Assembly (NCBI GenBank): GCA_044892505.1
Contig: CM097883.1
Location: 256,866,001 to 256,930,000, forward strand
Direction: 5' to 3'
Origin: Schmidtea nova
Lineage: Eukaryota
Length of the DNA: 64,000 bases
Shown here: piece after piece, positions 33,871 through 57,133 of the stretch
Numbering within the stretch: the first letter of the stretch is position 1
How the letters are laid out: each line of letters opens with the position of its first letter
Translations under genes and position numbers: made by a program
Notes under the pieces: model-generated
Told to the model about the DNA's origin: nothing
The model's input: the letters and a program-made list of their open reading frames with translations, nothing else
Databases searched by the model: none

Positions 33871-33951
33871 ATAAAATTTTGTGTTATCTTAAAAAGTTTA
33901 TTGTTCCTTTAAATTGATTTGGTAAATTGACAAATAGTTAGATCAATATAG

Positions 33952-34042
33952 TATAAAAGTATAAACTCATCTCACAAAATACCTAACAAAGGTAAATGAA
34001 TAATTAAACGAGCATTTGTTAAAACACTTCTAACAGAATAAA
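33952..34042 (+). promoter_or_regulatory. Candidate LTR TATA box (33952-58) and polyA signal (34037-42), i.e. a putative U3/R/U5 layout
   Basis: TATAAAA followed ~80 nt later by AATAAA, ~300 nt before the LTR end. A second candidate promoter (GATTGGTCAATC, then TATAAATA at 31515-22) lies near the LTR start. Inference only. Confidence 0.45.
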
Positions 34043-34343
34043 CCATGTCAAGGATAAATTTTCTGAAAGATTATGGTAGAATACCTAAGCGGATGATTAA
34101 AGCATAAGTCCTTCTAACGGCAGCAATGGACCCGTAAACATAAATGGGGAGTAGTACTAGCAATGGTGCTCACCTGCCCATCATTGTTTAACCACCCTGC
34201 GCATCACCAACTTGATTATATAGGGAAGTAATCAAGGGCGCTTGAGTGTAAAATTGCAATTTTATGCATGATCATGGATGAGGGATCCCTAGTCATTGTT
34301 AGAACATTTTTCATCTAACCCCTCCATGAACCCAGCATAAATT

Positions 34344-34362
34344 TGGGGGCTCAGCCGGGATC
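34344..34362 (+). promoter_or_regulatory. Primer-binding site, tRNA-Pro type
   Basis: TGGGGGCTCAGCCGGGATC matches the classical tRNA-Pro PBS TGGGGGCTCGTCCGGGAT at 16 of 18 positions. It starts 6 nt after the LTR end. Confidence 0.8.
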
Positions 34363-34653: not shown

Positions 34654-35115
34654 ATGGAGGAAAAACTGAAAGAAATTGAAGAATTTCTCAACACAGAAAG
34701 CGAAACATTAGAAACGATCGGCAAGAAAATAAACCGATTTAGAGAAATTGAATTTCAGGAACCCACAACACAGACTGAGGAAACAGATGAATTAATAAAG
34801 ATAACAGAAAGAACAAGAAAAATCGACATAGAGACCCGCTACAAATGGTACAGAGCGCGATTAGAAAATGCAGAACTAAACATTAAGTGCAGGCAAATAG
34901 AACAACGATTAACCCCAACATACAATCGATGGAGGGCGCAGGGGGTAGAAGCAGCGAAAAAATACCGACAGTGCTATATATGTGAGGATAGGGAGATACA
35001 AATTATGTTTTTACCTTGCGGACATTTTCGTTTTTGTAAAATATGTGCCAGCAAGCGCGACCTATGTCCTATGTGCAACCTGATGATAGACGATAAAATT
35101 ATTGTATATTTATAA
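34654..35115 (+). CDS. IAP-type C-terminal RING finger protein without BIR domains (153 aa), upstream of gag
   Basis: CYIC-x8-FLPCGH-x3-CKIC-x6-CPMC-x3-I...IIVYL-stop is the IAP-like C3HC4 RING at the extreme C-terminus. The N-terminus is acidic/coiled. AATAAA overlaps the stop. Confidence 0.85.
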   Translation: MEEKLKEIEEFLNTESETLETIGKKINRFREIEFQEPTTQTEETDELIKITERTRKIDIETRYKWYRARLENAELNIKCRQIEQRLTPTYNRWRAQGVEAAKKYRQCYICEDREIQIMFLPCGHFRFCKICASKRDLCPMCNLMIDDKIIVYL

Positions 35116-35592
35116 TAAATAAAATTTGAATGGAATTTTATTGATTTATTAATAAGGAAATCATGGGTACAATTGTCATATATAAATAATTTTTGAGCTA
35201 CTGCAAAGTAGTCCGATAGGAATCCATTGGGAGGTACCGATTGATCAACTTATTCAAGGTGTATAGAAAGGGGCCCATCGCAAGGGTTGGAAAGTTTTTG
35301 TGATGTGATTGATCACCACATCCTGCATTAATGGACCAACGCGATCTTTTTGTATATTTTGGTTGGGGAGAGAGATAGGGAAATCTTGATGGAGTAAAGC
35401 GCGCATAAGAAAAATAAATAAAAAGTTGAAGCAGACTGTTTAGGAAATAGTTATAATAGAACAAAGAAATAAACGATAGTGTTGAAATAATAAAAGGTGC
35501 ATAGTCAGCTCGCATAGAAGTAGTTATAACTCAGCTGAGAAATTTTAATCGCTAGCGAAGTTAAGAATTGTAATTAACCGGTTAAGTAAAGT

Positions 35593-36203
35593 TTATGAGA
35601 TTTGTCCCTTGAAACAAAGGGTTATGAGATTTGTCCCTTGAAACAAAGGATTAGGAGATTTGTCCCTTAAAACAAAGGGTTAGGAGATTTGTCCCTTGAA
35701 ACAAAGGGTTAGGAGATTTGTCCCTTGAAACAAAGGGTTATGAGATTCGTCCCTTGAAACAAAGGGTTAGGAGATTTGTCCCTTGAAACAAAGGGTTAGG
35801 AGATTTGTCCCTTGAAACAAAGGGTTATGAGATTCGTCCCTTGAAACAAAGGGTTAGGAGATTTGTCCCTTGAAACAAAGGGTTAGGAGATTTGTCCCTT
35901 GAAACAAAGGGTTATGAGATTTGTCCCTTGAAACAAAGGGTTATGAGATTTGTCCCTTGAAACAAAGGGTTAGGAGATTTGTCCCTTAAAACAAAGGGTT
36001 AGGAGATTTGTCCCTTGAAACAAAGGGTTAGGAGATTTGTCCCTTGAAACAAAGGGTTATGAGATTCGTCCCTTGAAACAAAGGGTTAGGAGATTTGTCC
36101 CTTGAAACAAAAGGTTAGGAGATTTGTCCCTTGAAACAAAGGGTTATGAGATTTGTCCCTTGAAACAAAGGGTTATTAGCGGTTTGTCCCTTGAAAAAAA
36201 GGG
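35593..36203. repeat. 29-bp tandem array, 20 near-perfect copies plus 1 degenerate copy
   Basis: Unit TTA(T/G)GAGATT(T/C)GTCCCTTGAAACAAAGGG with period 29 from 35593 to 36172; the last copy is divergent. Confidence 0.97.
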
Positions 36204-36247
36204 TTGAGGCCAATGAGCCATATTGAATGACCTAGCTAGGCGTTAAG

Positions 36248-36406
36248 GAGAGATTAAATTGAGGCCAAGAGAGCCATTTGAGAGATTAAATTGAGGCCAA
36301 TAGAGCCATTTGAGAGATTAAATTGAGGCCAGGAGAGCCATTTGAGAGATTAAATTGAGGCCAATAGAGCCATGTGAGATATAAAATTGAGGCCAGAAGA
36401 GCCATA
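36248..36406. repeat. 32-bp tandem array, ~5 copies
   Basis: Unit GAGAGATTAAATTGAGGCCA(A/G)(G/T)AGAGCCATTT at 36248, 36280, 36312, 36344 and 36376 (degenerate), with a partial copy at ~36204. Confidence 0.9.
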
Positions 36407-37020
36407 GTGAACTATAGATATATCCGGATAAATAGTAATAGAGGGAATATAGACCCCTAGTGTAATCGTCGACGAGATTTAGAGTAGTGCGCACTAGTAG
36501 TTAAGAGAATGCGAGTAAAGCTGATTATGCAACCTTAAGTAAAGCATGCAAGGAGAATAGTAAAAAATTTTTGGGCTGACCGGAACAACCGGCAGAATAA
36601 GTAAAAACGATTGCTAGCAGGGAATAATGAATAGAAATGATAAAATAATGATAAACGAGTCAGAAAGACTCAGGGAATTAGAGCGCTCGAGCGACCAATA
36701 ATTTGGGAAACTGTGGGAAAAGTAATTGATTTGATAAAACATAGATAATTATTACGACATAAACAGATAATTGTGACCAGTCTATAGATAATTTAAATAG
36801 ACTAAAAATAAAGGGGAATCTGGGAATTGGGAAATAATGAAAACCCAGTAATAAGTAATCCCGAAAGAAAGGGAATAAAAGCGCGACGATAACAATAATG
36901 TATCGTTGAGGACCTTTGTATTTTAGATATACAAATCAATCAAATCAATCAATCAAGCAAGAAAAATCAGAACACGATAAGAGATAGGACAAGAAAATTG
37001 AGTATACAAAAGTAATCCCC

Positions 37021-38433
37021 TTGAGAAAAGGAGCAAAGAGTGTCGTAGTAAAGCCAACGGAAAAGAAAGTCGGTAGCAACATTAACAAAAAAGACAAAAC
37101 TAGTACTACAACAAAATCAACAAAAAAGCAGAAAGCCGGCAAAGATAACCCACAAGGGAGTAAATCGAGGAAAATAATAAGAGATAAATCGATTACCGAA
37201 AACGATAAATTGTCAATAGTAAGCAACAGCTCAAGTAACAAAGAAAACCAAGCCGAACCCAAGGAGAACCAAGCAAGTGAAATAGAGAGCGACGAAACTA
37301 ACAACGATAATATCGAAGAAATAGAACACGAGATAGAACAAGAAGAAGAAATCGACGAAACTAACAACGATAATATCAAAGAAGTAGAAAACGAGGTAGA
37401 ACCAGAGATAGAAATCAACGAGAGTGATAACGAAAGTATAATATCAGATAACGAAGGAATAAGAGAAACAGAAAGCGATTCAAGCTCGAGTAAAACGGAA
37501 GACGAACATAACAACGAACTAGAAACAAGAGGAAACGAAAGCAAAATAACTCAAGACAGCGGAATTGAAATGGGTGAACCAAGAGAAGAAATAAAGGATA
37601 AATTTTCAGGAGAACCGTTTAACGGAGATGCGAGTAAATTAGAAACCTTTTTAAAAGAATTTGGCATATTCGTGGAAGTATGCAAATGGAAAGCTGAAAC
37701 AACGGTAAGCAGAATTCAGTTATATTTGAAAGATAGTGCATTGGACCTATATCTGGAAGCGAAAAATGGTACCAATCCACCTACAAGCTGGACAGCGATA
37801 AAGGACTTTTTCCAACAAACATTTGGAATAAATAAAGTGCTGAGCGAGGCATTCATAGAATTCTCAATGAGGAAACAAAAGATGAATGAATCTAATGCGG
37901 TATACGCGAGCGAACTGAAAAAATTAGCAAAATCGGTATTCAAGGATGGAGGTCCAATAAACGAGGAGTTAATGGCAGCTATCTTCATAGGAGGATTAAG
38001 AAGACCCGACATAAGATCGCAAGTAGGATGTCAAGGATGCAAAACCATAGATCAAGCGTTAGAAACAGCTAACCGATTTGAATTGCATATGATAGGAAGT
38101 GAGGGCAGAATTTATTTAGCCATGGACACAGCACAAACCGAACCAGAGGTAAATCTCAATAATCACATTCCAAATTCGCAACAATTAAACTGACCACCCC
38201 CTCAACGAAGGAATGAAGGAAATAAAGTGCAGAACTTTGAAAACCAAAACAATTACAACCCTCAAAGACAAACAAAACAATGTAAAACATGCGGAAAGTT
38301 GGGACACTGGCAGCAAGAATGCTATCAAAATTTGAATTGCGGAAAATGTGGAGTTAAAGGACACTCGGAGAGTAGATGTTCTACGATAATCTGTTTTAAC
38401 TGCGGACGACCTGGTCACTATTCAAGAAATTGC
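37021..38433 (+). pseudogene. gag: Gag: acidic N-terminus, capsid domain, three CCHC zinc knuckles; one in-frame TGA
   Basis: FSGEPFNGDASKLETFLKEF...LYLKDSALDLY...SWTAIKDFFQQTF...RKQKMNESNAVYASELKKLA...FIGGL (retrotransposon CA). Knuckles CKTCGKLGHWQQEC, CGKCGVKGHSESRC and CFNCGRPGHYSRNC at 38281-38433. TGA at 38191-93, after which the frame continues. Confidence 0.9.
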
Positions 38434-41400
38434 GGACAAAAAAGTAATCAGCGAGGAAACTGGCAGAGTAATGGGAACCGACCAAATTACGGAAATCAAG
38501 CAAATACCGTAAACCGACCAGATTATGGAAACCAACAAAACAACAATAACAATAATCAGAACAAAACCACCCCCAAAGAAATTCATTTGATGCAAGAAGT
38601 TCAAAGGTTGACGGAACTGATAAACAATACGACGAGAGGAAATCCGCAAACCAATCAACAGCAAATTAGCATGATGAGAAAAATAGAAAGCGAAAACGAA
38701 CGGTTGAATCGAGAAAGTCAAGCACGACACGCTCAAGAATGGGCAAGAATACAAAGAGAGGATGAACAAAAACAGCAAGAAAGAGAACGACAACCTCTAA
38801 GAATTAACATGCTAAGAGCAACAAACCAAACAGACACTCGCGAGAAAGAAACCACACTGGAAATGAATTCGATAGACCCAAATCCAGCCGACAACGAAAG
38901 TCGAAAAGAGATAGTACAAAAAGATGAAGAAGTAGAAAAAGAAACAAAAAAGGAAGTGGAAACCGAGATAAACCAGGAAGAGGGAAAGGAGATTTGGAAA
39001 AGAGGAATGATGGTAATTATGCCCAACAAATCCGTGTTTAGATTCCAGTATAACGTAAAAGAAGAAGTGAGAATATTATTCAACAAAGTAAACCAGATGA
39101 TTCCAGGAGTAACGAAACTGCCCAGAGAAGCGTTCTTACAAATAGAAGGTGCGCCAAAAGTAAAGTTGGAATTAACGGATATATGGGAAAACTTGGGAGT
39201 AGTAGAAACAAAAAGAAACGTGATGATTATTAAAGAAATAGAACCAGAAGAAATTCCACCACCAATACGTCACGAAACCCGAATCAGGCGAATATTTGAA
39301 GGAAAAATGATAAGAAGACGTTTAAAAGAGATAGACGAGTTGGGAAAGAAAATGGAAAAAGTCGAAGTAATAGAGGACAAGAGTGAACCAACACCAGAGA
39401 TCGACAAAACCGAAACAAAACCAACGGAGAAGATACAAGGAGAAACGAACCAAATAGCACATATTAATATGCTAAGAAATACCACCAGAGAGTTTTCCGA
39501 TGAGGAAGAAGATAGTGACATCAGTAGCCTAGCAGGAGACATATTAAACGAATCCGAAGACGAAAATAAAGAGAGAGAAGTAATAAAGACCTCAGAACCT
39601 ACACAGATAAAAGTAGATGAAATCCAGAAATTATTAGATAACTCGCTAGAAGTAATATATAACGAAGAGTTCATGGACAAGAAACAATATCGGAAATTCA
39701 TGAAAGCATTATTACAAATGAACTACAAAGAATGGTTACAAGATCGGGAAATAGACATGTTAAATCGATACGTAGGGAAATTAATAGAGGAACCACTCCT
39801 CAATTACACCATCTCAATAATAATAAATACATCTACACCAAGAATCTGGATTAAAACTCCATTTACAGACGATATCTACAGATGGGTAGAGGACAGGCTA
39901 GGGAGCTCATATAAAAACAAATTCATTTATTCGCAGAATAGACTCGTAAAGAAAAGAACGCACTTAGTAGAAACAGGTATATGGCCAGGAGAAATAACCC
40001 TGTTATCAATATGTGATGAAAAAGAAGAAGAGAACCTACAAGAAGTTGCAAGGGAAGCAAACACGTGCTTCGAAAGGAGAATAAAACCACGGTTAGAATA
40101 CGAGAAAGAACGAGTCTTACGAAAGAATCTAAATTCCCTGATAGAACAAATCATACCACAAGTCAAAAAACATAGAAAAGAGTTAATGAGAAGCGAATAC
40201 GAGAAATTGAAACGATGTATTGAGTGCATACGTGACACAAGCCACACGAGATGGTCACAGATCTCACACGACAAATTAATCGCAAAAATGGGAAAAACAA
40301 TGTTTAGACAAGGGAAAATAACAGATCTAAAAATTTCAGTAGAATTACCTAATGAGGACACCAAAGAAATTGAAGTGGTAGCGGATTGCACCATTAAAGA
40401 ATTAATAAATGTCATCAACGAGACACTAGTGCAAAGAGAACCAGAAGACGAATGGGAAGACGACATAATCATACAATACAACGAACATGTATTATGGGAT
40501 CACGATGAGAGACGATTATAAAAAATCGGTATATGGGATAATCACCAAACAATCCACGTTAGCAGAATGGACGATACACCAAGGGAAACTGCTAAAGATG
40601 AGAAAAAAGAACGGGAACGACGGAAAGAAGTTGTGCGCAAATTACAACGAATAGTAGAAATTTATCGAAATTGGCGAATTTGGCCAGAGTGGGAAAATGT
40701 ATTAGAAGAACTCAATCTCAACAGACGAATACGAACACCCGTAGAAAAACAATGGAACGAGAAAGGAAAATGTTGGGAACCAAAAGAAGGGGAATATGAA
40801 GAAGAATATAAAAGAGGAATTGAAGATGACTGCGAACCAGAGACAGGAAGAGTTTGCATGGTGACAAGAAAAGCTACGCCAATAGACCTAGATGGACCAG
40901 AAACCGCGGCTATGTGGCTAGAAAGGGAAAAGCAAAAAACGGAAGAATTTGTCGAAATATTAAAAACTAATGCGCACGGTAAGAGAAAAGTAATAAAGGG
41001 TCTCGCAGATTTTTTCGTGGTAAATGGGGAGGATATAACATGCTTGCGTAAAGTAGCAAAAGCAATCGCAGAATATAAAAGAGTTAACGAGTGGTGCCCG
41101 GAACAACTAGACCACGTAATTAGGAAATGGAGAAACCAAGAATTCTCGCAGGAAATTCCACAAAAAGTACATTTAAGAATAATATATCCAAACAAGGATA
41201 AGGAAGAGCTTTGGGTAGGAATAGCAGAAAAAATTCGAGATATTAAAAAGAAATTGAGATACGAACCACCATTCCATTTACAACACCAAGGACGATCATT
41301 AGATAACAGTTTAGAGATTGGAATAACGCCAGCGCAACTAGATCTCATGAATACCTTGACAGTGGAAGCAATAGCGGGGCAACCATTGAAACGTAAAGAA

Positions 41401-42519
41401 GAAAACCATAAACCACACGGAAGTATAAGTACGCCGAGCCCGATGAAATCAGTACTAACACCAGGGACAAGTTCGAGACGATCTGAGACAACACCCAGAG
41501 GAACCAGAGAAAGGACTCCACCACAACCATACGACGTGGACGAAATTTTAACGGATAGCGACGATATGATAGAAGAGTTAACCGAATTAACAAGGGAAAA
41601 GGACGATAACATTTTCGAAAGAATACAAGAACTACCTACGACAATACAAGTAACCAACACCGGAGAAACAGAAGTCGAAGAAGAGATAATAATAGAAGAG
41701 GTAAACGATTTGACGGAAGATGAAACGAGAGGAGCGAATGTCGAAAATGTACAATTAACACAAGAAATGGAAAGATGGTTAGAAGAAAGAGCTAACGAAC
41801 CAAGAGATGTCACCGAAGAAACCGGACGAGCAACAAGGTTTGTGGAAACAGGCACAGGAATGGATAAACGACCTCGAGGTAGACCCAAGGCAGACCCAGC
41901 AACTGTAGTTATAAGAAATAAAGATGAAAAGAGACAAGATCAATGGGAATTATGCTTAAGGAAACTAAATAAAATTGCGGAGATGAAAGAAAAAGAGACA
42001 ACACCAATATGTCAAGGGGAGGAATGGATATCGAAAACAATAATGGAAATATTGGCAATAATTGATCCGGAATTAAGAAAATACTGGCGTATAACTGAGA
42101 TAAGCGAAAAGGCGAAGTCACTACACAGCGCAATCGCACCCATCTTACCGGAATTCATAAAAGAAAAGACGAAGTCAAACCATTTAGACTGGCAAGGAAC
42201 CACTATGTTAATAAAGAAACTGACAGAAGGAGCGGAAACGGATAACAAATACGTAATAGCCATTGCATACACGATATACAATCTGTTGACATTGAGTAGA
42301 GGTCGACCAAAACCCACTGCATTAGAGAGACATATAAAAAATACCGCAAAAATTATAGCCAGAGAAATAGAACCATACGTCATTAACAAAGGAGGATGGG
42401 AAACATTTATAAAAAATAACCAGAAGAAAACGCAAGCAAAGAATATGAAAAAGAAATTCGAAAAAATATTGGAAGAGTTAGAGAAGGAACAAACAGGAAC
42501 AGGAAACGCGAAGTCATCA
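38434..42519 (+). pseudogene. Accessory polyprotein segment between Gag and Env: unknown domains, two ubiquitin-like folds, Bcl-2-like domain; one in-frame TAA
   Basis: Same reading frame as gag and env (ORF starts 38227 and 40567 are both 1 mod 3). TAA at 40519-21. Ubl-like segments at 40327-40566 and 41164-41379; BH2-like YVINKGGWETF at 42376-42408. Confidence 0.7.
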
Positions 42520-44592
42520 ATGAATTTGAGTTCTATAATAATGATGATGCTGATATGGATGATTAGCACCGATAGCGCAACAGCATTCGAAGTGTTTGAT
42601 TGCGACCAAATGAAGTTAGGAGAAAAGTATTCATTGAGAGGTACGGAGCAATGCAAAGATGCAACTCCAGTAGAGTTGCAAAAGATTAAAAAGGAACAAT
42701 GGTACCACGTGTATCAAGAAGCAGAACTCATAAAGACAATGGTGAATGAATGTAAAGTGCAGAAGACGAGATTCGCATTCTACTGCGGGAGAGGACATTA
42801 TTCAGCAATTGTCATGCCAGGAACGGAAAGAGAACCAATCGTGTTACAAGGAGAAGACTGCGAAGCACTGTTTAAACATGGAGAAGTAACAACAAGAGAT
42901 AAAATCAAGATAAGAGGAAAGCCAGGAATGATGATGCAACAGACGTACTATGTAGCAGGACGGATTACGGGAGGAGAAGGATATTGTCAAGGAGAAACCT
43001 ACCCGATATTCGGAGTACCCGCAACCAACTTAGTGGTGATGGATACGTATATAGTCGAATTGAAAAGCTATGAAGCATTCTTTGAACCAACAACGGGAGA
43101 AATGAAAACGTTATCCATGTGTAAAATCGACAGGAGCATGTGTCAAACGGGAATGTCAACATTAGTATACAAACCAAAGGTGAACGAATGTCAACTACAA
43201 CTGCTACAAGGAGCACAGTTCGACGAAATTCAAGGAAAAACGTTCCAGGAAGAAGACGATGACGACAAAGTTAGAGCAAAACATCTCAAGGAAGCTTTAG
43301 AGAATAAAAGACAATTGAAACCAGATCACAGAGAAAAACGGATAGAGATGAGGGCCACACCAACAGTATTGATAACCACAAATCACGATGTGGGAATGAG
43401 GTTCATAAAAGGAAAAGCAACCCTCAAGTGTAGTACAACGGTATACGAAACAAATTAACCAGGAATATATGTGTCAAAACAAGAAGTGCCGAATGCGAAA
43501 CCCAAAATCGACACAATGGATATCAAACTACACCTTTACGTGAATAATAAAATGGATTTCCTATTCCATAGAGGACAAGCCTCATTACAAAAAGTATACT
43601 ACGATCTGATAAACAATGATTGCATACTGAATCGAGAAATATTAAAGACAAAGTTGGCCGTAGCGATTACGAATCCAGATAGCGCGATGCCATTATTACC
43701 ACTGAGAGAAGGACATTTCGGAAGAGTGGTTGGAGAAGCAATGTATGTATACATTTGCGAAAAGACACACGCGTCGTTAGCAGCAACAACGCAGTTGAAA
43801 CCTGGAACCTGTACAAATGAGTTAGAAATCGATTACAAAGGAAAAGTACGATACGTTCAACCGGTGACGAGAATCATCAATCCACCAAGGTTTGAACCAA
43901 ATCCATTCAACTGTAGTAATGCGTATGGACCGCTTTATCAGAAACCAGATGGTAAATGGGTTATGTTTCCAGGAAGATCCGAAGTGATAGCACCAAGAGA
44001 ATTCGAGCTAATGCAGTTGTCAAAGGATAGGCAATTCAGCGACGTAGATGTCTCAAACAACGGAATATATAGTCCGAAAGATTTAGAAGCAGCAAGGCAG
44101 AATATACTATTCCCAGCGAGAAGAGAAGCATTACTGTCAAATATCGTAACGATAACGGGAGGAACGAATTATCGAGAAGGACCGAATTATGAACTGTTGT
44201 TGTCACCAGCACATTTCAAGAAAGCCACAGAAAAAATGATGAAAGCAATGTGGGGAAGATTCCTGATATTTGGACAAATGATGGCCGGAATACTGGGGGT
44301 TATATTAATAATACAAATCGTCAGAGTGATAATAACGCAAATGCTCGCGTGTTTTGACATCTACAAGAGAGAAAAGAAAGTGAATTGGAAAATGGTAGTA
44401 GGGTTTTTACCATTCCTTGCGAAAACGATGGTGTTACATGGTCACTCAAAAGATATCCACCGAATAAAAAGACTCCTGAAGATATTAGCAAAAATGAAGG
44501 GAACAGATGAAGAAGTAGGACGAAAATTTAAAAAGATAATGAATGACGAACAAGCAAGACAACAGCTCAAGAGAGAAAGAAAAGGTTTATAG
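42520..44592 (+). pseudogene. env: Env-like glycoprotein resembling Chuviridae/Jingchuvirales G (class III, gB-related); one in-frame TAA
   Basis: Signal-like MNLSSIIMMMLIWMISTDSATA|FEVFDC. Cys-spaced motifs ECKVQKTRFAFYCG, GYCQG, YVNNKMDF..LQKVYYDLINNDCILNREIL..NPD and GHFGRVVGEAMYVYIC. Furin-like REKR at 43330-41. C-terminal WGRFLIFGQMMAGILGVILIIQIV TM. TAA at 43456-58. Confidence 0.8.
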
Positions 44593-47500
44593 GAGAGGAT
44601 GAAAGGATATAAAACCCAAAATGATTCGAGTGATGACGATGATGACGACGACGACTATAAGGGAGGACAAGTGTATAAGAACCAAGCACCACAATACATC
44701 GAAAAGAATCCAGCCGACGCATGGAAATGTTACGCACCTCCACCAACAATGTATCAAGAACCACTACAAGGAGGAAAAAATAGCACGATGCAAATGATGC
44801 CAATGACAAATGTATACCCCATGATACCAGAAGATTATAAAATGAGAAGATGTAGAAGCGTAGATCCACAAGGAGATACACACACGATCGCAGTGATGTC
44901 ATCAAACACAGGTCCAGTATTAACCACGACAATAGAAATTAACGGAAGAGAAATCGAAGCAATGATCGACACTGGAGCAAATATTTCCGCCATCGACATC
45001 AAATGGATACCACAAGAGCAAAGACGGGAAATAGAAAGGACAAACGTCCACGTAATTGCATGTAGCAAAGAAGTTGTAGAAGTAGCAGGAAGATGGTGGG
45101 TAAAAATACGCCACTTAAACACGGAAATCGATACCTACGTAGCAGTTATACCAGCATTAAGCGTACCTTGCATCATCGGAACAGATTTGATGCCAGCATT
45201 ATTTAAAGAGATTGTAATCGACCTCGGAACAATGAGACTAAAGGATCGCACAGGACAAATATGCGCAATAGAAGCCAAAGTGACAAGTTCAAAGCAAATG
45301 ATAATACCCGCAAGAAAGGAGAAAATATGTTACGTAAAGATAGATCCGACAATCCAAGGGGATATGATTTTCGAACCAAGTAAGAGATTCGAGAAAAGAA
45401 AAGCGTTGCCAATGGCAAGAGGACTAGTTAACATAAACGATGATGGAGAAATCCCAATAAACGTAGTAAACTTCGATGAAGAGGACAAAATAATATACGA
45501 AAACGAAAGATTAGGTAAATTAACCCCAATGATGGATATCGAACTACCAATAGAAGGGGCAGAGAAAGATAAAGAGCCAACCTGGAATATTGATAGTGAA
45601 TTATTAAATAAGGATCAAAGGAAGCAGTTAGAAAAACTCCTGATAGAGTATAAGGATATATTTGCAGCATCCGATTTAGATCTAGGAACATGTGATGTCA
45701 CACTACATACAATACCATTAACAGATGAAACCCCAATTGCATTAAGGCCGTACAAATTAGCGGAAGCACAGAAAGCAGTAGCAGAAGCAGAAGTGAAGAA
45801 AATGTTGGATGCAGAAATAATCGAACCAAGTTGTTCACCCTGGCAATTTCCAGTGGTAATGGTAAAGAAAAAAGACGGAACACAGAGATTCTGCATCGAC
45901 TATCGAAGATTGAATACAGTGACAAAAAGGGATACTTACCCATTACCAGACATTAATGAAATGCTATTAACATTACAAGGAGCAGCATATTTTACATCGT
46001 TAGATCTGAAAAGCGGATATTGGCAAATAAAAATGAAGGAAGAAGATAAGGAGAAAACTGCCTTTACCATCGGGAGAGATTTATATCAATTTCGGAAAAT
46101 GCCATTTGGATTAACGAACGCACCAGCATCATTTCAGAGATGCATGAATTTCGTCACCCACGGAATAAAGCAGTGCATGGTCTACATCGACGACTTATTG
46201 ATTTACTCTAGTACATTCGAACAACACATACAGGATATTCGAGATGTATTCGTTAGACTTAGACAATGGAAGTTAAAACTCAAGCCATCAAAATGCGATT
46301 GGGCAAAAGAAAAGGTTACATTTTTAGGACATATAGTGTCAGCAAAAGGAAAAGAACCGGATCCTAGAAACATCGACAAGGTAAAAGAATGTCCAGTACC
46401 AAAAACAATAACCCAAATACAAGAATTTCTCGGACTATGTGGATATTAAAAAAAAAAGCAAAACCTATACAGGAGCTGGTAAAGAAAGATGTATCATTCA
46501 TATGGGGAGATGAACAGCAAACAGCCTTTGAAACGTTGAGAGATAAACTGATAACCGCACCTATATTGGTACACCCAGACTTCAAGAAGCCATTCCTACT
46601 TGCAACAGATGCAAGCGGATATGCAGCAGGAGCAGTATTAGGACAATACGACGACGAAGGAAAAGAACGGGTAATCGGATATTATAGCCGGACATTCAAA
46701 AAACATGAGAAAAATTATTCAGTGACAGAACGGGAAGCATTAGCGATTAAATATTTAAACACTTTAAATATTTATTATGGGGACACATCATCTGCATAAC
46801 AACAGATCACCAACCGCTTGTATGGTTAGGACAGCACAAGGAAACATCTAGTAGACTAATGCGATGGGCAATGCAGTTACAGGAGTACTCACCAGACATA
46901 AAATTTAAATCAGGAAAAGCGAATGCGAATGCAGATTGTATGTCAAGACTGACATTTCCGGAATTAACCGATCCTGATGTACAACGAATTTGTGTATTAA
47001 TAGCGGAGGATTTAGATTTTAGTGAGTTAAAGAAAGATCAACAGGAAGACAAAGAATTGGGACAGATCATAGAGTTCCTAACGTCTCGAAACATGGAGGT
47101 ATTCAAAGATAATAAAGAATTAAAGGAACATATAGGAAAATATCAACATCGCTACATAATAAATAAAGGATGGTTGTTAATACAAACGGGGAAAAGAGAT
47201 TGATGTGTTTACCGGAAAACAGAAGGAAAGAGATAATGATCCAATACCATGATGGGAAATTGGGAGGTCATATGTCCGAGAAAAAGACCATAAATCGTAT
47301 GAGACAAAAATATTATTGGCGAACAATGGAAGAAGATATAAAGGAATGGATTAAAAATTGTCTAACTTGCGCAACCAGAAAGGATAGTGGGAAGAAATGG
47401 AAGAACCCGCTACAACCAATGCCGATACCAGCAGAGCCAATGACAACTATAGCAATGGACGTAATAGGACCATTACCAGAAAGTTTAAACGGAAATATTT

Positions 47501-48336
47501 ATATATTGGTAATAACGGATTATCTGACGAAATTCCCGGAAGCATTTGCCATGCAAGACCAAAAAGCAAAAACCGTAGCAAAAATTCTAGTGGAAGAAAT
47601 ATGTTGCAGATACGGAACTCCAAAACAAATACTCACAGACCAAGGAACTAATTTTATGAGTGAGTTATTGAACGAGGTGACAAACTATTTCAGAATAGCA
47701 AAATTGAGAACTTCACCATATCACCCACAAACGAATGGACAAACGGAGCGATTTAATGGTACATTGATCAGAATGTTATCAAATTACGTCAGCAGACATC
47801 AGACTGATTGGGACGAATACATAAAATTATGTTTAATGGCATACCGAATGTCGATACATGCAGCAACAAAACTAAGCCCATTTCAACTTATGTATGGAAG
47901 AGAATGCAACATGCCCATAGATTTAGAGTATCAGCCACCATTATCACAATATATGGAAGACGACGACTACGTAACCAAATTCAAAGAAAGAATGCAGGAG
48001 ATATGGAAAACGGCAGAACTCAAAATTAAATTTTATCAGGAAAGTTATAAGGATTTACACGACCAGAAGAAAAATGTTAAAGCGAACGACCTAAAACCAG
48101 GAGACTGGGTGATAATAGAAACTCCCGAAATAATACCAGGAACTGTTAAGAAACTCCAAAGACCTGGAAGAGGACCTTATGAAATTATATACAAAAAGGA
48201 CAATAATGTCAAAGTTAAGCTAATAAATCGACCGTTAGTACGACCCATATATGTAAACACCTGCAGATGTAAGAAAGTGCCTAAAACGATAACTATAACA
48301 CCAGAAAATCGAATAATAACCAGAGCACAAACAGCC
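44593..48336 (+). pseudogene. pol: Pol: aspartic protease, reverse transcriptase, RNase H, integrase; three frameshifts
   Basis: PR: AMIDTGANIS. RT: RFCIDYRRLN, LDLKSGYWQI, MPFGLTNAPASFQ, VYIDDLLIYS. RH: LATDASG, ERE, TDHQPL. IN: H..GH..C-x2-C, MDVIGP, TDQGTNF, QTERFN, GPY. Lesions: a deletion with frameshift at ~46445, and frameshifts at ~46750 and ~47168. Confidence 0.97.
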
Positions 48337-50685
48337 AGGATAAATATGCTCAGAGCAAACACAAGCGAAGACGACAAAGCGGAAATAAGGCAAAAAGAAA
48401 TCAGAAATAAAGAGATCATATTGAAGGCGAGAGAAATAATGGGAAGATGGCATGTTAAAGACGAAGTAGGCATATCAAGGGATATTAGACATATAATTAG
48501 CCGTTACGCACAAGGATTACCAACCGAACCAATTATTTCTGAATTATTGGAAAAAATCCCTGAAATACTCTTATTGAAGGATGTAGGAGGACAACCAGCC
48601 TTACACAATGCGATAGAGTGTAAAAACATTGAAAGAGCAAAAGAATTCCTAAAAATCGCAAAAGAAACAAACCAAAACTTGGACGTAGGGAATCGGGAAC
48701 AAGAAACTCCATTAATGACAGCCGCAATCCACCAAGCAGATAAAGAAATGATAGATCTATTGATAAAAGCTCACTTCAGTTGGACAGAACGAGATAGAGA
48801 AGACAAAACAGTGCTAAATCACGTAATATGGAGTTCTCACCAACCAATGCTGAAATACATAATAGCTAACTCCACTTGGGAGATAGACGAACTAGTTAAA
48901 GGAGACATTATCAAAGAGGCAATCAAAATTGGTAAATGCAACACGATCCGTAAGTTAATCAAATGGAAACGACCAGAAGATGATACATGGGTCTTAGACA
49001 TAAACGAAGTATACAGCGAAGGACAAAACGCACTGTTAAGATATCTTCTGAAATTTACTTGTGATCAGAAGACATTACTAACCTTATTAGACAGGGGAAA
49101 CATAAACATCACAAAGAATGAAGAAGAACACAAATTCGATAAAGAGAAGGAAGCCTTATTCAACAAGATTAGGAAATGGTGTGCGAAACCACTTGATAAA
49201 CTAATAACATACAAAGACATAAACAATTTTAACGATAAATACCAGACGATAGTAAGTGAGTATGAGGAATTAGTAAAAATCTTAAACCATCCCGAAAAAT
49301 GCAAACAGGTTTTAGAGAAAAAAGAAAGAGAAAGTAACAAGAAACTCACACCACTCTTTAAAGCAGAAGCACCATACCAAGCTAGACTAGATGCGATACA
49401 AGAAAAAGCAAAAGAATTGTTACCGGAATTCGAGAATAGTAAACATGCACTGGAAATACTCGGTGCATTAGTTGAAAAAGTACACGCATACGCAAAAGGA
49501 ACATACAATGGTAACGACATAGTAATAATAAAAAAGGAGATGCCAGTAACATTCCTATTACCAAAAGACGGAATAATGCCCATACATAGAGCTCTACGAA
49601 ATGGCAAAGATAGAAAAGTAATGGAAATTGCAAGAGTAATGCTAAACTGCGGAAGCAACATGAATATGGTAGACGAGAAAGGAGATACACTTATGGTATT
49701 TGCAGCAAGGGCTAAAACAAAAACAAAGGTGTTGGAAGAACTATACAAAGCAGGTGCAGGACTTACAGGAAAGACAGATAAAGATAATTCAATTTTGGAT
49801 GTAGCATTACTAACACATAATTGGGAAATGGTCAACTTCATTAAAACAATCTCAAATCAGGAAGAAATAGAATATCTAACTAAAACAATTAAGAAACCCA
49901 GTTTACTGACAATGATGCACAATGCCGAACTAACAGAATCAATACTTACGTGGATAAATCCGAATACTAACAAACCAGCATTCAGGATTAATGAGTTTAC
50001 AGAACATAACCAGAACTGGTGCATAAGAAGTGCCTTAATAACGTATAAATGGCCAGAGATATTGAAGATGTTTATGGAAAGAAAGGATCTAAGAATCACA
50101 ACCAGCCCGAAAGAAGAAAAATACACAGGCAAATGGAAAGAATTGATGAAGACATACATCAACAATTGGATCAAGGCCAAAAAGGAAATCTTAGAATATA
50201 AATCCACTAACAAAGTAATACCGGAGCAGGTAGAAACACAAGAATTTGAGGCAAGTAACCTAACGACATTAGCATATGCAAAATTGATAGAAGAAATCAA
50301 TGTCGAGGACGACATTTTCACCGAGCCAGGGGGAGATGACAACACAGATAGTGACGACGGTAACAACTCAGAAAATTCAAGCGATCACGAACCACCCGAT
50401 AAAGAGGAAAACGAGAGAAAAAACAAGAAACAAGACAAGGAAGAAAAGAAAAGGGAAGACGAAAAACAAAGAGATGAAGAGGGAGGACAAGGAAAAAACG
50501 ACCAAGGAGATAAAAATGACACCCAAAGAACAGGTTATAAATCAACCATAAAACCATTCTTCAAACCAGAATTACTATTACTAACAATGATTATAACGTT
50601 AATTAATCCAAGTCAGGGAATGACATGTGAAGAAAGGGCAATAATACAAATAAAAAACGCAAATGTTGCTATCAGAGAGTTATAA
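48337..50685 (+). CDS. C-terminal extension of the polyprotein after integrase: two clusters of three ankyrin repeats, an acidic/charged tail and a terminal hydrophobic segment
   Basis: In frame with IN (ORF 47170-50685). GQPALHNAI, QETPLMTAA and DKTVLNHVI at 48577-48864. GIMPIHRAL, GDTLMVFAA and DNSILDVAL at 49567-49845. Confidence 0.85.
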   Translation, partial: RINMLRANTSEDDKAEIRQKEIRNKEIILKAREIMGRWHVKDEVGISRDIRHIISRYAQGLPTEPIISELLEKIPEILLLKDVGGQPALHNAIECKNIERAKEFLKIAKETNQNLDVGNREQETPLMTAAIHQADKEMIDLLIKAHFSWTERDREDKTVLNHVIWSSHQPMLKYIIANSTWEIDELVKGDIIKEAIKIGKCNTIRKLIKWKRPEDDTWVLDINEVYSEGQNALLRYLLKFTCDQKTLLTLLDRGNINITKNEEEHKFDKEKEALFNKIRKWCAKPLDKLITYKDINNFNDKYQTIVSEYEELVKILNHPEKCKQVLEKKERESNKKLTPLFKAEAPYQARLDAIQEKAKELLPEFENSKHALEILGALVEKVHAYAKGTYNGNDIVIIKKEMPVTFLLPKDGIMPIHRALRNGKDRKVMEIARVMLNCGSNMNMVDEKGDTLMVFAARAKTKTKVLEELYKAGAGLTGKTDKDNSILDVALLTHNWEMVNFIKTISNQEEIEYLTKTIKKPSLLTMMHNAELTESILTWINPNTNKPAFRINEFTEHNQNWCIRSALITYKWPEILKMFMERKDLRITTSPKEEKYTGKWKELMKTYINNWIKAKKEILEYKSTNKVIPEQVETQEFEASNLTTLAYAKLIEEINVEDDIFTEPGGDDNTDSDDGNNSENSSDHEPPDKEENERKNKKQDKEEKKREDEKQRDEEGGQGKNDQGDKNDTQRTGYKSTIKPFFKPELLLLTMIITLINPSQGMTCEERAIIQIKNANVAIREL

Positions 50686-50997
50686 CAATTGTTTCGAACA
50701 ATTACACAGAATAGAGGAACAACAAAGAACGATAACTGAACTCACCAGAGAAAATCAAAATATAAGCAATATCAGTCAAAGACAAGCAATAGAAATAAAC
50801 CATTTAACACGAGGAGAAGGAGAAGAATCCGAAGAAGGATGGATGGGTTGGGTAATAAATAGGATAAACAACGAAGCGGAACCAGATTCAACGAATGAGC
50901 CATAGATAAATAAAGCGGAAAACTGTAAATATGTAAAAATAAAAACAAGAAAAATCAAAAATAAATGACAAGTCGAATGTATATATTATTGTAGAAA

Positions 50998-52374
50998 ATG
51001 GACAGAGAAGAACGAATAATCGAAATTTTGAGATTAGAAAACAGAAAATGGAGCAAGAGGCTCACATGCGGGAAATGTAACAATTTACTACGAGAACCCA
51101 GACAAACGATATGTGGATGTAGAATATGTACAAAATGTATACAAGAATTAGATGCAACAGGAATAACAACATGCCCAGAATGTAAGGAAGGAAGAATAGT
51201 GTTGGACGAAACCAGAACGGACAAAGCAACCCAAAGAGAAATTATGAGCACCACAACGGAGTGCGTAAATACACCTTGTATATGGCAAGGACAAATAAGT
51301 AATCTGGAAAACCATATGGAAAAATGCGAGGAAAAGAGAGCCGAATGCGAGAAATGCCAACAGACAATAACTCTAAAGAAGAGAGAACAACACAAGGAAG
51401 AATGTAAAGAAGAAGAAATCGCATGCGAGTATTGTGAAACTCGAGAAACAAGGAGAAAAATCGAAGAGGAACACTTGAATATAACAGAGGAGAAAGTATG
51501 CAGACAATATGTAAGTAAATGTCCAAACAATTGCGAAATAACAGAAGAAGTAAAGTTACATGAACATTGGAAAGTATGTACCGAAAGACCAAGAGAATGT
51601 CCATATAACAAACAGGGATGCAAAGAAAAGCGGACGCGGCAATCAATGAAACAACACCTAGAAGAAGCAGCACTAACGCATGTGGAAATGACAAACGAAA
51701 CGACAAAAGAAACTGAACAGACAATCCAGAAATTAGGAAAAGAAGTAGAATCACATAAGATAATGATGAGGATACTACTAGAAACAAGAGAGCAGTTTGA
51801 ACTAACTCGCGAAAGAATGGAAAAGAAAATAATAGCCATAGAAGAATTAGGAAAAGGAATGAAGATACAATATAATCAATTAATACGAGAAATGGACGAA
51901 AGAAGGGACTTACCAATCGCACCTTACCTATGGAAAGTAACAGATTTCAGAGACAAACTAGCAGAAGCCAGAAATATGACGAAAACAGCAGTAATAAGCC
52001 CACCATTTTATTTATGGAAAAACGGGGTTGAAATAAGATTGAAAGTATACCCAAATGGAGACGGAAGAGGACAAGGAACACACGTGTCAATATTTTTCTC
52101 GCTATGTAAAGGAGAATACGATGACCTAATAGAATGGCCCTTGAAAGTAGGAGTCATTATAAGAATCAGGAGTGTGGGAAAACCAGTAGAAAAGTTCTTT
52201 GAAACAGACAAACATACGAGTACGAGCGAAAAACCAACAACAGAATGCGGACTAGCAGCAGGAGAACCAATGTTTATAAGGAAAGAAAACCTATGGGAGC
52301 GACTATATGCAGACACGCTATACATAGAGATGGAGAGGCATGAGAAAACAGACAGAAAAGGATGGTTGGCGTAA
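50998..52374 (+). CDS. Full-length intronless TRAF-like protein (RING, TRAF zinc fingers, coiled coil, MATH; 458 aa)
   Basis: RING CGKC..REPRQTICGCRICTKC..CPEC. TRAF zinc fingers CVNTPCIWQG..LENHMEKC and CPYNKQGC..R..MKQH. MATH YLWKVTDF..SPPFY..LKVYPNGDGRGQGTHVSIFFSLCKGEYDDLIEWP. The ORF is intact. Confidence 0.93.
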   Translation: MDREERIIEILRLENRKWSKRLTCGKCNNLLREPRQTICGCRICTKCIQELDATGITTCPECKEGRIVLDETRTDKATQREIMSTTTECVNTPCIWQGQISNLENHMEKCEEKRAECEKCQQTITLKKREQHKEECKEEEIACEYCETRETRRKIEEEHLNITEEKVCRQYVSKCPNNCEITEEVKLHEHWKVCTERPRECPYNKQGCKEKRTRQSMKQHLEEAALTHVEMTNETTKETEQTIQKLGKEVESHKIMMRILLETREQFELTRERMEKKIIAIEELGKGMKIQYNQLIREMDERRDLPIAPYLWKVTDFRDKLAEARNMTKTAVISPPFYLWKNGVEIRLKVYPNGDGRGQGTHVSIFFSLCKGEYDDLIEWPLKVGVIIRIRSVGKPVEKFFETDKHTSTSEKPTTECGLAAGEPMFIRKENLWERLYADTLYIEMERHEKTDRKGWLA

Positions 52375-52487: not shown

Positions 52488-53549
52488 ATGGGAAATATAG
52501 AAGTAACCTTACAAGAAGTAACAGTACATCAAGACGAAATGATCAGAAATCACATGGAACGGATTGGGATATGGATTCATGCCTATTATCGAAAACAGGA
52601 GGAATTGGAAAGACAAACCCAAGCACTAAGAGAAGCCGAGAAAACGAATCAAAGAAGTCGAGAAAAAATAGAAGAAGTCTACAAACTGCTAAGACAACAA
52701 AACGAATACTACAAAGAGATGATGAAAGAGCGACGAGAGGATAGGGATAGACAACAAATAAAAACAGACCATAAGATTCAGTCAATCACAGAACAAGCAA
52801 GATATTGGAAGAAAGAGGCAAAAGACTCTTACAAGGAAGCAAGGGAGATAATAGAACGAACAGCGTACAGCGATGATTGGAAACTGTTTAAAGAGATCGA
52901 TGAATTAAAAGAGGAATTAGGGCAAAAGATCAGTCAAGAAGCGTCAAATAAAGTATGGAGTAAGAAAAGACAACAATTTATCAGAGAACAAGCCAAGAAA
53001 ATAAAAGAATTAACTTATCAAGTACAAAGAATGGGAGAAGATTTAGCCAATCAAGAACAATTAAAAGGTATGCTGACCGGAATGTGGAATCACAAGGAAG
53101 AAAACATGAAAAGAGACATAAATGGATATCAAGGAGTGATCACCCAGAAGAAAATAGAATTAAAAAGAACTAAAGAAAGACTGGAAGAAACGAGGCAGAG
53201 TTATGTAGAGAACATAACAAATTTGACAAAAGAAAACGAAGAACTGAGAAAGAAGTTGGCAGAAAAACCAACACCAATAAAAGAAACAAGTATCACAGCA
53301 GCAGTGACCGAAATGATGGAGAAGGAAGAGAGAGAGAAAAAATTGGCAGAACTAGAAAAACAAATTGAAACCCTAACAGAACAGGCGAACTATCTGGAAT
53401 ACTTATTAGATGAAGAGATCCAGATATCCCACACATACCGAGAAGAAGTCGAAATGTGGAGGAGCACGGTAATATGGATGCCACTCCCCATAAATCAGGT
53501 GGAACCTCAAGACGAAGGTTTTCACGAACCCAACGAAACCCTTGTATAA
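52488..53549 (+). CDS. Coiled-coil protein of unknown function (353 aa)
   Basis: Long intact ATG-initiated ORF with continuous E/K/Q/R heptad character and the same purine-rich codon usage as the element. Confidence 0.75.
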   Translation: MGNIEVTLQEVTVHQDEMIRNHMERIGIWIHAYYRKQEELERQTQALREAEKTNQRSREKIEEVYKLLRQQNEYYKEMMKERREDRDRQQIKTDHKIQSITEQARYWKKEAKDSYKEAREIIERTAYSDDWKLFKEIDELKEELGQKISQEASNKVWSKKRQQFIREQAKKIKELTYQVQRMGEDLANQEQLKGMLTGMWNHKEENMKRDINGYQGVITQKKIELKRTKERLEETRQSYVENITNLTKENEELRKKLAEKPTPIKETSITAAVTEMMEKEEREKKLAELEKQIETLTEQANYLEYLLDEEIQISHTYREEVEMWRSTVIWMPLPINQVEPQDEGFHEPNETLV

Positions 53550-53624: not shown

Positions 53625-54203
53625 ATGAGAAAGCTCGCAATAGCAACACTCTTATGGTTAACAACCATTACCCTACAGAGAGAAGATCTACAACTAACCG
53701 AAACCCAATTACGAGTTCTACCCGACAAAACCTATCAAAAAGTAGATAGCCTAATCGAAGAAGTAATTAAAGAAATCAACGAATTCCGACAGGAATACCC
53801 CCACAATCAAGACCATCAAATCCAACAAATCTTCGGTAATCAACAACTGAAATTAAAAGAGACCCGAAAAATCCTGAGAGAAGGTAGAGAGCCCATAAAA
53901 AGCCTATCCCAAGCTGAAATAGAATATCAAGAAAAATGGATCATAGCAATCATCATAATCCTATCAGTCAGCACAACTATCATCGCAATCACAATCCTGC
54001 TTGCCTCGTATAGAATAAAAATCCTAAAACAAAAGCAGAAAATCTTCAACCAAACCTCTAGACGAGATAACCGAGCTCAAAGACGAATAAGGAGCCATCT
54101 CAACCACATTCAAACCCACTACGAGCTACAAATAATCAACGAGAGGACCCGAACTCAACCCCAAGCGAGCCAGACGATCGAGCAAATTGTAGAAACATTA
54201 TGA
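53625..54203 (+). CDS. Small type I membrane protein (signal-like N-terminus, helical ectodomain, TM, basic tail)
   Basis: First in-frame ATG at 53625 (MRKLAIATLLWLTTITL). Hydrophobic WIIAIIIILSVSTTIIAITILLASY is followed by RIKILKQKQK. Confidence 0.7.
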   Translation: MRKLAIATLLWLTTITLQREDLQLTETQLRVLPDKTYQKVDSLIEEVIKEINEFRQEYPHNQDHQIQQIFGNQQLKLKETRKILREGREPIKSLSQAEIEYQEKWIIAIIIILSVSTTIIAITILLASYRIKILKQKQKIFNQTSRRDNRAQRRIRSHLNHIQTHYELQIINERTRTQPQASQTIEQIVETL

Positions 54204-55875
54204 TAAACTTATCGAACTATTGTGACAAATCATTACATTTTTTGACTATTTATTGACAAACTTTATGATATGTATAAATTCGATCACCTTACGTGATTTT
54301 TCTTTGCATGTATAATTCTATAAAACTTTTTATGTATGATGAATATAAGTATTTATGTATAATTAATTGCGGGACGCAATTTTAGGGGTCCCCGGGTGAT
54401 GTTGGGCCCGCCAAATCACCTAAAAAACACAATAAAACGAACAAAAGCATGAAACAATAAGGAAATAATAAAAATAAAAATAGCAAGAAAAACAAATTAA
54501 AAATAACAATAAAACGACAAATAATAATTGATAAATTTTCAGTAAAAGGAAATTTTGAAAATAAACCGGTAAACAACCGCAAAAGGGGGCCTGAAATAAG
54601 AAAAAATAGAATTAAATAAAATAATAGTACAAATAATTAATTAATTACTTGGAAAATCAGGACCACCCAGCGAGAAACCGGAAAAGGAAACAAAATAATG
54701 TTTAGGTTAGAATAAAATAATAAAAATACTTTGATGGACGGCCTGATCCTGATAGGTCAATCCAACCAGACGGATCAGTATAAATACCGATCCAAAAATC
54801 ACAACAAAAAAAAACGTTTTACTTTTCACTTACAATCAAGACTAAACTTTGATTTAAGTAATATTTCATTGAACAAAACGAGATTTTTTGAAAAAACAGA
54901 ATTTCATACAAGGAACCACACATTCAAGTACGGAAGTAAATTTTTATTTTATTTTGTCTTATATGATGTACCCATGATTTTTATGCAATTAAAATTTTAT
55001 ATGTAAACGTTATTTTATTTTTTTTGATATTGACACTTTAATGCATATAGCTATACTTCCTATGCTGCTCACGCGGCGAGGGAGTCCGAGTCGTCGTTGT
55101 GGGACCTCACGGTCTCACATGGCGGTTCAACCTTTTTATTGTGTTGGTTTTAAATTTTAAATTTGGTAGTTTGAAACAATTAAATTAAACCATTCGAATT
55201 TAACCAGATATTTATCAGCGAGATTAAAGAATTTTGATGGTAGGCAAATTCCATGCTTATTTAGTCGAGTAAATTTTCAGTTACGAAATATCAATAATAC
55301 GACTAAGTCCAGACAGTTTTCTGGCGATAAGTAAAAAGTCATCATTTGGTTGTGCAGGGGACGTAGCGCAGCAGGCGGCAGAGAGGATCTAAGGAGATAC
55401 CAGGAGGGGTCAAGTACCCGATAGGCGTCAGGTACCCGAGACAAATGTGTCGACACACTAAGGTTAAATTTGAGTACGGGAGAGCAGGTGTAGCATGACA
55501 AGTTATAAAAATTTTCCAAGTGAATCGATCGAAATGGTGATTTTCAATTGAGGTCAAGGTACAGGATATCGCAACTGCATGACAGAGACTAGTAAAACTG
55601 AAAATTGGTAAATTCTAAAAATACTTTAAATTCCAATCTAAATAAAACAAAAAATCTGTAAATTCTAAAATTACTTTTATGCCGATCGCTGTACATAGCG
55701 CGGTAACTCAAATTAATCTTATCCTGATCGTCGTACATGGCGCAGGGAAAACAAATATCTTATCCGACCGTGGTATATCGCGGCGATGGTTTAATAACGA
55801 AATGGTATTAACTAAAAGGATTGAGATTAAATAGAATTTACATTCAACTCTTTATTAAATAAAATAAAATGACAG

Positions 55876-56352
55876 ATGCTGACATCGGTGAACGAAAGAT
55901 TAACGCGGATTCGGAACTCAGGAAAGGAGGACAGGGCGAATGGATGGGCAAATCGGCTCAAGGAGTTGCCCCAGCCAATTCTGCGGACCATTAACGCCCA
56001 AGCATACAAATGGAGACATGGGTTTGGCCGAAAATGCCCGTTCTCGATATGGACAGGGGGGAACGACCAAATACTCTATCGAGGAGGACCGAACTGGCCC
56101 ATTTCCCAAAGGCCGTACTCAAATAAGTTTGGCCGATTGATCGTATTGGTTAAGAACACTGAGGGACGAACAAGCCGTATAATTTATTGGGGGCATATCC
56201 CTCGACGAGAACTATGTCAACTAGGTCTACACGAATTTCTACCGCAAAAACCGTTCGGCAAGGAGTGCCAGAAAGGACAACCCTCATTCTCTTGGGCTCG
56301 TCTTCGTCGGAGGCCGATTAACAGCGAATTACATAGCTTGTTTCGGAGATAA
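55876..56352 (+). CDS. LTR-encoded ORF A, 3' LTR copy
   Basis: Identical to 32613-33089 except for one S>A change. Confidence 0.5.
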   Translation: MLTSVNERLTRIRNSGKEDRANGWANRLKELPQPILRTINAQAYKWRHGFGRKCPFSIWTGGNDQILYRGGPNWPISQRPYSNKFGRLIVLVKNTEGRTSRIIYWGHIPRRELCQLGLHEFLPQKPFGKECQKGQPSFSWARLRRRPINSELHSLFRR

Positions 56353-56536
56353 AAACTGATTGTCAAATGTATAAATTGTGTTCAAATATTAATATTCAGC
56401 GGTGTTTTTGTTTTGTTGTTTTGAGTTTTGGTTTTGTGTTTTAATGGTTCGTATTCGTAACCTAATAATCCTATAATCAGATTTTAATTTTTCACATAAT
56501 TTAATCATAAAGTGAATATCCTAAATAAATTATAGA

Positions 56537-57133
56537 ATGACCACCGATTTGATGCAGAGAGAATTGGAAAAGATGTGGCGGATCCGGAGAGCCCAGGACA
56601 AGGAATTGGGTCTCCTCAAGGCACAATTGATCAAAGCAGAGGCACAGATTGCATACTTGCGCAAAAGCTGGTTTGCTCCGGCCAGAATGAAGGAGCAAAT
56701 CAGTAAAACCGAGCGCGTCCAACAGACTGCAGCCGATTACCAAATGGAATGGGAGGCTACAAAGATAGAACTCCGAAAATGCCTCCATTCCGTAACTGCC
56801 TCATATATTGAGAAAGAGCTCAGAGAGCAAATCCGTCCGGTTACGTATCAAGCTTGGACATCAGAAAAGAAGACTGTGAATTCCATTGGTACGGATGTCG
56901 CCGATCTAATCGAAAGTCGGAATGAGACGGCTCCTGCAGCAAATTCAACCACCTCAACGACAACTGCGCACCAGAAACGCAAGCGCATTGGGCAGAAACG
57001 GCGAAGACAGAGGAAATTATTCGCTCAACGATTACAGAGTCAGGTAGATGGTCTACATCAGATGACCGAAGAAGAATTATTGACGGAGATTTTTCCTCCG
57101 GCTGGAGTTTTTACAGAACTAGTTAAAAATTAA
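56537..57133 (+). CDS. LTR-encoded ORF B, 3' LTR copy
   Basis: Identical to 33274-33870 except for one A>V change. Confidence 0.7.
   Translation: MTTDLMQRELEKMWRIRRAQDKELGLLKAQLIKAEAQIAYLRKSWFAPARMKEQISKTERVQQTAADYQMEWEATKIELRKCLHSVTASYIEKELREQIRPVTYQAWTSEKKTVNSIGTDVADLIESRNETAPAANSTTSTTTAHQKRKRIGQKRRRQRKLFAQRLQSQVDGLHQMTEEELLTEIFPPAGVFTELVKN

Follow-up and report, generated by a model that had tools for sequence, protein, structure and literature searches.

A full-length TRAF gene under purifying selection in a Burro-type giant Ty3/gypsy element of Schmidtea nova

The 64,000-nucleotide stretch of Schmidtea nova DNA analyzed here (the window) contains a full-length TRAF gene (50998..52374, + strand; 458 residues with no stop inside the frame, by ORF reading), which is a stand-alone accessory ORF of a Burro-type giant Ty3/gypsy element. 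The gene is kept by purifying selection, and its product probably feeds into the TRAF/IAP signalling by which the host controls cell survival and defence, in the cells that express the element. A MATH_TRAF_C domain in Burro elements, including one in an accessory ORF, and a functional captured IAP are already in print (PMC6431247; for the IAP, the accessible part of PMC13465017). We add measured selection, the family structure of these elements and splice-acceptor-like sites before their accessory ORFs.

The encoded protein consists of a RING (residues 24–62), zinc fingers (about 89–228), a coiled coil (225–303) and a MATH domain (310–448), and so combines the N-terminal RING and zinc fingers, the TRAF-N coiled coil and the C-terminal MATH/TRAF-C domain of the TRAF family. 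Pfam matched MATH_2 (E 1e-20), TRAF-mep_MATH (6e-18) and zf-TRAF (3e-7) and made no call for the RING; the RING-zinc finger chains of TRAF6, TRAF5, TRAF2 and TRAF3 align to residues 21–147 (E 1e-13 to 1e-4). An AlphaFold2 model (mean pLDDT 93.9) has a helix at 225–303 and a β-rich MATH domain at 310–448, and its best Foldseek matches are the TRAF domains of TRAF3, TRAF5, TRAF1 and TRAF2. These analyses agree on the RING-zinc finger-coiled coil-MATH order that the earlier note had read from the sequence.

The predicted zinc ligands of the RING are eight cysteines (C24, C27, C39, C41, C44, C47, C59 and C62), with C41 at the position of a histidine in TRAF6, and K26 and N28 occupy positions held by isoleucine and leucine in TRAF6. 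In the MATH groove, all 30 sampled copies have a serine (S410) in place of the phenylalanine of TRAF3, and the element TRAF has AAGEP where TRAF3 has IASGCP; the YPNGDG stretch is retained. We take the altered MATH positions to be residues of the receptor-peptide groove. Given these groove and RING changes, the partners and E3 activity of the element TRAF may differ from those of host TRAFs. Its codon usage is that of the element with respect to A, which fills 0.56 of third codon positions, compared to 0.48–0.49 in pol and 0.30–0.35 in six host TRAFs. The A/G-rich style noted earlier thus holds for A but not for G, whose third-position frequency (0.18) is not distinctive among the genes compared (0.12–0.20).

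The carrier is a 26.5-kb element between LTRs at 31136–34337 and 54400–57600 (both + strand), which are 99.8% identical over 3,203 columns, have TG..CA ends and are flanked by a 4-bp target duplication (31132–31135 and 57601–57604). The claim of a complete, intact TRAF inside an LTR retroelement is therefore correct: the 458-codon frame is open and lies between these LTRs. With a 3.6-kb deletion restored and LTRs of 3.2 kb, the estimated full size fits the approximately 30 kb of Burro elements; the assignment to this group is by size and described domain order. All genes of the element are on the + strand, in the order RING ORF, tandem repeats, polyprotein, TRAF and two further ORFs. The 5′ LTR is followed by a primer-binding-site-like stretch (34344..34361, + strand, by sequence reading), which presumably resembles tRNA-Pro sites. 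The first accessory ORF (34654..35115, 153 residues) ends in an IAP-type RING (zf-C3HC4_3, 5e-12; XIAP/cIAP RING, 2e-10) and has no BIR match; neither BIR nor BCL2, motifs described for Burro elements, was matched by Pfam in any ORF of the window. Tandem arrays of 29-nt and 32-nt units occupy the leader (35443..36407, no strand assigned).

The polyprotein gene (36988..50685) encodes gag, a zinc knuckle, a Monjiviricetes-like fusion glycoprotein, protease, reverse transcriptase (RT), RNase H, integrase and ankyrin repeats. In the window copy it is broken by four in-frame stops, frameshifts and the 3′ deletion, despite the 99.8% identity of the LTRs; this copy was likely copied in trans when already defective. 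In two of five siblings read, neighbouring stretches together leave about 5,600 codons open; Burro elements have a single polyprotein of about 5,000 residues, with env between gag and pol and ankyrin after integrase. Comparison with siblings places the junction of the ∼3.6-kb internal deletion at 50660..50663 (no strand), as 29 of 29 match the window only 3′ of about 50655. The deletion removed the C-terminal membrane-protein part of the polyprotein, for which the siblings give no Pfam match, and the start of a 118-residue ORF that precedes TRAF in siblings (dN/dS 0.12 there) and survives here as a 3′ remnant (50664..50905, + strand). Downstream of TRAF are a coiled-coil-like ORF of 353 residues (52488..53549; dN/dS 0.06) and an ORF of 192 residues with signal-like and transmembrane-like stretches, judged by eye, and no Pfam family (53625..54203). 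Two open frames within the LTR (32610–33089 and 33262–33870, repeated in the 3′ LTR) belong to no known family, and similarly sized ORFs occupy these positions in siblings with diverged LTRs. A hAT transposase fragment lies 5′ of the element (27569–28816).

Sibling elements of the window copy (together, family A) carry the same gene. A protein search found at least 92 TRAF copies at ≥95% identity among the best candidates, 85 of these without a stop. Exact-word matching gave 151 TRAF and 156 integrase matches, counts that take in truncated copies and miss copies altered within the word. Among the first 100 integrase places, a listed TRAF lies at the expected 7 kb in 72, at another distance in 13 and is lacking in 15. 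Of 40 integrase-anchored stretches sampled systematically, 30 have a full TRAF within 10 kb, and its frame is open in 25 of those 30; the remaining 10 stretches break off, carry insertions or, in one copy, have a deletion that removes most of TRAF. Seven further stretches, picked because no TRAF was listed for them and excluded from these rates, have the gene in two cases and lack it in five. The 4,161 candidates of a first look were rejected as a TRAF copy number. Copies that share the family-A interior (about 95% alike) differ in LTR type, and some resemble the window LTR patchily, at 80–85%, which suggests LTR exchange; the LTR pair of each copy is 99.7–100% alike. Further deletion derivatives keep the TRAF cassette: one has a 3.6-kb deletion of separate origin, and two lack pol. 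One family-A copy is fused directly to a family-D TRAF fragment.

The TRAF gene evolves under purifying selection, with a dN/dS of 0.11 (95% interval 0.08–0.15) across 30 family-A copies and 0.10 across 20 copies of the related family D, as counted between pairs of copies that are not independent, and uncorrected for transitions (ts/tv about 5). Within family A, the value is 0.14 for the RING, 0.13 for the zinc fingers, 0.07 for the coiled coil and 0.06 for the MATH domain, compared to 0.03 for integrase, 0.12 for the ankyrin region and 0.27 for the membrane-protein region; shifted frames, used as a control, gave 0.80 and 1.84. Of 36 cysteine and histidine positions, 34 are invariant or vary in one copy only. 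Variants shared between copies have a dN/dS of 0.10 and singletons one of 0.33. The TRAF frame (1.4 kb) is broken in 5 of 30 copies and the 4.8-times longer frame from integrase to the end (6.6 kb) in 11 of 30. Breakage of inserted copies is thus close to neutral, so that the replicating lineages appear to be where selection acts, while inserted copies decay.

Three related families were identified. Family B (116 exact-word matches) has a TRAF 51% identical to that of family A and the same layout in both copies read. Family D is far more numerous (1,144 matches), with a TRAF 37% identical to that of family A, bringing the exact-word total for TRAF in families A, B and D to 1,411 (151 + 116 + 1,144). 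The order small ORF, TRAF, coiled-coil ORF is kept in both B and D, except that D has an IAP gene in between. The full order in D is a RING ORF, a protease-ankyrin ORF, the small ORF, TRAF, a BIR-RING IAP directly after it, the coiled-coil ORF and three more ORFs. In all 20 family-D copies examined, ankyrin follows protease directly, with no RT or integrase in between, and gag and env matches are absent in the three copies checked. The dN/dS of the family-D IAP is 0.19, and a word-based protein search gave no match for it. Family C (254 matches) has the MATH domain only, within a frame of 4,706 codons and without the RING part. As this family thrives with MATH alone, some Burro elements do not need a full TRAF gene. 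The LTR of family D is 94% like that of family C. It is possible, if somewhat doubtful, that family D is a cargo-only satellite that has dropped RT and integrase and kept a TRAF-IAP survival module under selection, expressing it in an operon-like manner through the host splicing or spliced-leader machinery and trading survival of the host cell for replication by the MATH-only helper family.

In a full-length tree of 36 rows (LG+G4), the TRAFs of families A, B and D form one clade (support 99/97) within a group (100/99) whose other members are triclad and unnamed TRAFs, and apart from every host subgroup, with composition warnings on the element rows. This position among triclad TRAFs indicates an old capture. 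A sister relationship to the Dendrocoelum TRAF-2/5 group was not rejected in a 28-row test (p-AU 0.43); the placement of the donor in these trees is affected by long branches and biased composition. Family C joins A and B weakly (87) in a quick MATH tree of 85 rows. A 452-residue metagenome protein groups with the element TRAFs (94/97) and may be an element TRAF of another flatworm.

Two features that the earlier note had taken as marks of a captured retrocopy are real but are shared with host genes. The cysteine in place of histidine in the RING (CGC, C41) is present in 15 of the 16 host-type RING motifs found, and likewise in Dendrocoelum TRAFs; we therefore rejected it as an element-specific change in favour of a trait of the host lineage. 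Similarly, the window gene is intronless, but at least eight host-type loci also run from RING to MATH in one open frame, and the host TRAFs nearest to the element TRAF are themselves single-exon. Because many host TRAFs lack introns, intron absence does not indicate a retrocopy and was rejected as proof of one. An LTR element would be expected to capture a gene through RNA. Long residence and maintenance in the element are supported: siblings carry the gene, it is under purifying selection, and three diverged families form one clade. Neither of the outcomes that the earlier note named as refuting, a TRAF missing from sibling elements or one free of purifying selection, was observed. The likely history is a single old capture whose donor was a host TRAF with one exon.

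The suggestion that amplification of elements accounts for part of the apparent TRAF expansion in planarians holds in one respect: raw element copies far outnumber host genes. The host expansion is nevertheless real and forms its own clade. Of 150 scored MATH matches (from 2,419 candidates), 63 lie within a single 50-Mb region, C2:405–455 Mb, outside the element families (a hand count from the list). This region is a host tandem cluster of two-part TRAF-like genes, with separate RING and MATH exons, and includes a double-MATH ORF. Twelve loci of the cluster, read in 10-kb stretches, have neither the A skew nor the cassette of the element, which argues for a real host expansion; unrelated gypsy fragments or weak matches to the LTR ORFs do lie close to some of them. 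Derivation of the cluster from element TRAFs was rejected; the two-exon cluster genes fall on a separate branch of the MATH tree (93). As the host expansion is real and separate, element copies inflate only raw genomic counts. Planarian TRAF counts based on genomes must therefore exclude element copies; the published MATH count, in the part of PMC6109357 available, is 99 transcripts.

How TRAF is expressed is suggested by its upstream sequence. A T-rich stretch followed by TAG (50978..50994, + strand) ends 3 nt 5′ of the TRAF start and resembles a splice acceptor; its AG is kept in 30 of 30 copies. With thresholds chosen after the sites were seen, a site of this kind (T-rich, then YAG) lies before four of five family-A accessory ORFs and before eight of the 12 start codons tested across three families; as background, 12 of the 436 ATGs of the element have one. 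Such sites suggest spliced or spliced-leader RNAs, and such processing is described for a flatworm in PMC8629364, which also cites it for planarians. We propose that an element once captured a single-exon host TRAF, that TRAF would be expressed from a processed RNA, cis- or trans-spliced through the predicted acceptor-like site, and that its product would act mainly as a putative trimeric adaptor within the pathways by which the host signals survival or defence. The benefit to the element would be that host cells bearing it are kept alive. IAP genes accompany TRAF, as an IAP-type RING in family A and as the BIR-RING IAP adjoining TRAF in D; TRAF2 is a partner of cIAP. A search by eye for TRAF-binding motifs in the tails of the element membrane proteins gave nothing convincing. 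Planarian TRAFs are required for cell survival (PMC7586133; PMC8807557), Burro elements are silenced by PIWI (PMC8532177), and the Burro1 IAP is reported, second-hand, to protect stem cells (PMC13465017).

Other roles for the element TRAF fit parts of these data. Rather than relaying a survival signal, it might mainly block host TRAFs, through mixed trimers or a RING poor in E2 binding, and so damp defence against the element. The groove and RING changes, with the hydrophobic residues of the TRAF6-type RING missing, leave room for such a decoy, and the coiled coil is conserved as much as the MATH domain (0.07 and 0.06). However, similar RING and groove changes are found in host TRAFs and in human TRAF2, the RING is itself constrained (0.14), and nearly all Cys/His positions are preserved; we regard this role as unlikely. 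Copies could also be retained since their TRAF benefits the animal, for example in regeneration, for which the Burro1 IAP offers a precedent (PMC13465017, in its accessible part) and the abundance of a family that lacks RT and integrase and yet constrains TRAF and IAP gives some encouragement. Against this, TRAF in inserted copies breaks no less often than the integrase-to-end frame (5/30 in 1.4 kb and 11/30 in 6.6 kb), and dN/dS is higher for singletons (0.33) than for shared variants (0.10). Such mutualism and the proposed service to the element are not mutually exclusive, but we consider mutualism quite improbable as the reason for retention.

It is less probable still that TRAF acts on the proteins of the element itself, by ubiquitination or in membrane-protein trafficking, and not on host signalling. 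The conserved cassette does place TRAF beside membrane-protein ORFs and element ORFs that match no known family, but family D keeps TRAF without RT or integrase and, in the three copies checked, without gag or env matches, and family C manages without the RING part. As the window copy is young (LTRs 99.8% identical), its open frame proves little in isolation, which might suggest a neutral passenger from a recent capture. The dN/dS of 0.10–0.11 in two families contradicts this, as do open frames at 37–51% identity between families and element-like codon usage, making a passenger extremely improbable. A modulator of host survival or defence is the likely role of the element TRAF, judging from its sequence. 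Should the gene prove functional, an entire adaptor of immunity and cell death would be encoded by a selfish retroelement more than a thousand times over in this genome, and the account of the Burro1 IAP would widen from a single gene to a pathway module.

Our search of the literature turned up no paper on a TRAF carried at full length by an element, although Grohme 2018, Jurka 2007, Lee 2026 or their supplements may already show one; the part of PMC11410931 seen does not mention TRAF. Among the closest known systems are the Burro/GYPSM1 elements of planarians (PMC6431247), which have the same size, the same single polyprotein (gag-env-PR-RT-RH-IN-ankyrin), in which a mononegavirus-like fusion protein separates gag from pol, and MATH_TRAF_C and IAP-type cargo. 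There, MATH_TRAF_C is part of the polyprotein or of an accessory ORF lying upstream, and Burro1, with MATH inside the polyprotein, has the layout of our family C. In contrast to the MATH_TRAF_C domain alone named there, the elements described here carry a whole TRAF, from RING to MATH, as a separate ORF 3′ of pol, in three families and with selection measured. The Burro1 B-IAP (Lee et al. 2026 Dev Cell, via the accessible part of PMC13465017) is likewise a captured apoptosis/ubiquitin gene of the same element group, with reported stem-cell protection; it is a different gene, and one with a reported function, while that of TRAF is predicted. Triclad TRAF2/3-like genes (Dendrocoelum TRAF-2/-4/-5, Dugesia TRAF2-like A and Smed-TRAF-2A/B) share the domain order, the C-for-H RING and one tree group with the element TRAFs, which differ in being only 27–34% identical to them, in element-type codons, in the altered groove and in their hundreds of dispersed copies. 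Accessory and captured genes of complex retroviruses and viral TRAF/IAP modulators also provide a parallel, in that genes of host signalling sit in a 3′ cassette and are likely expressed from processed RNAs. Viral TRAF modulators mostly bind TRAFs through short motifs, whereas the Burro-type elements encode a whole TRAF.
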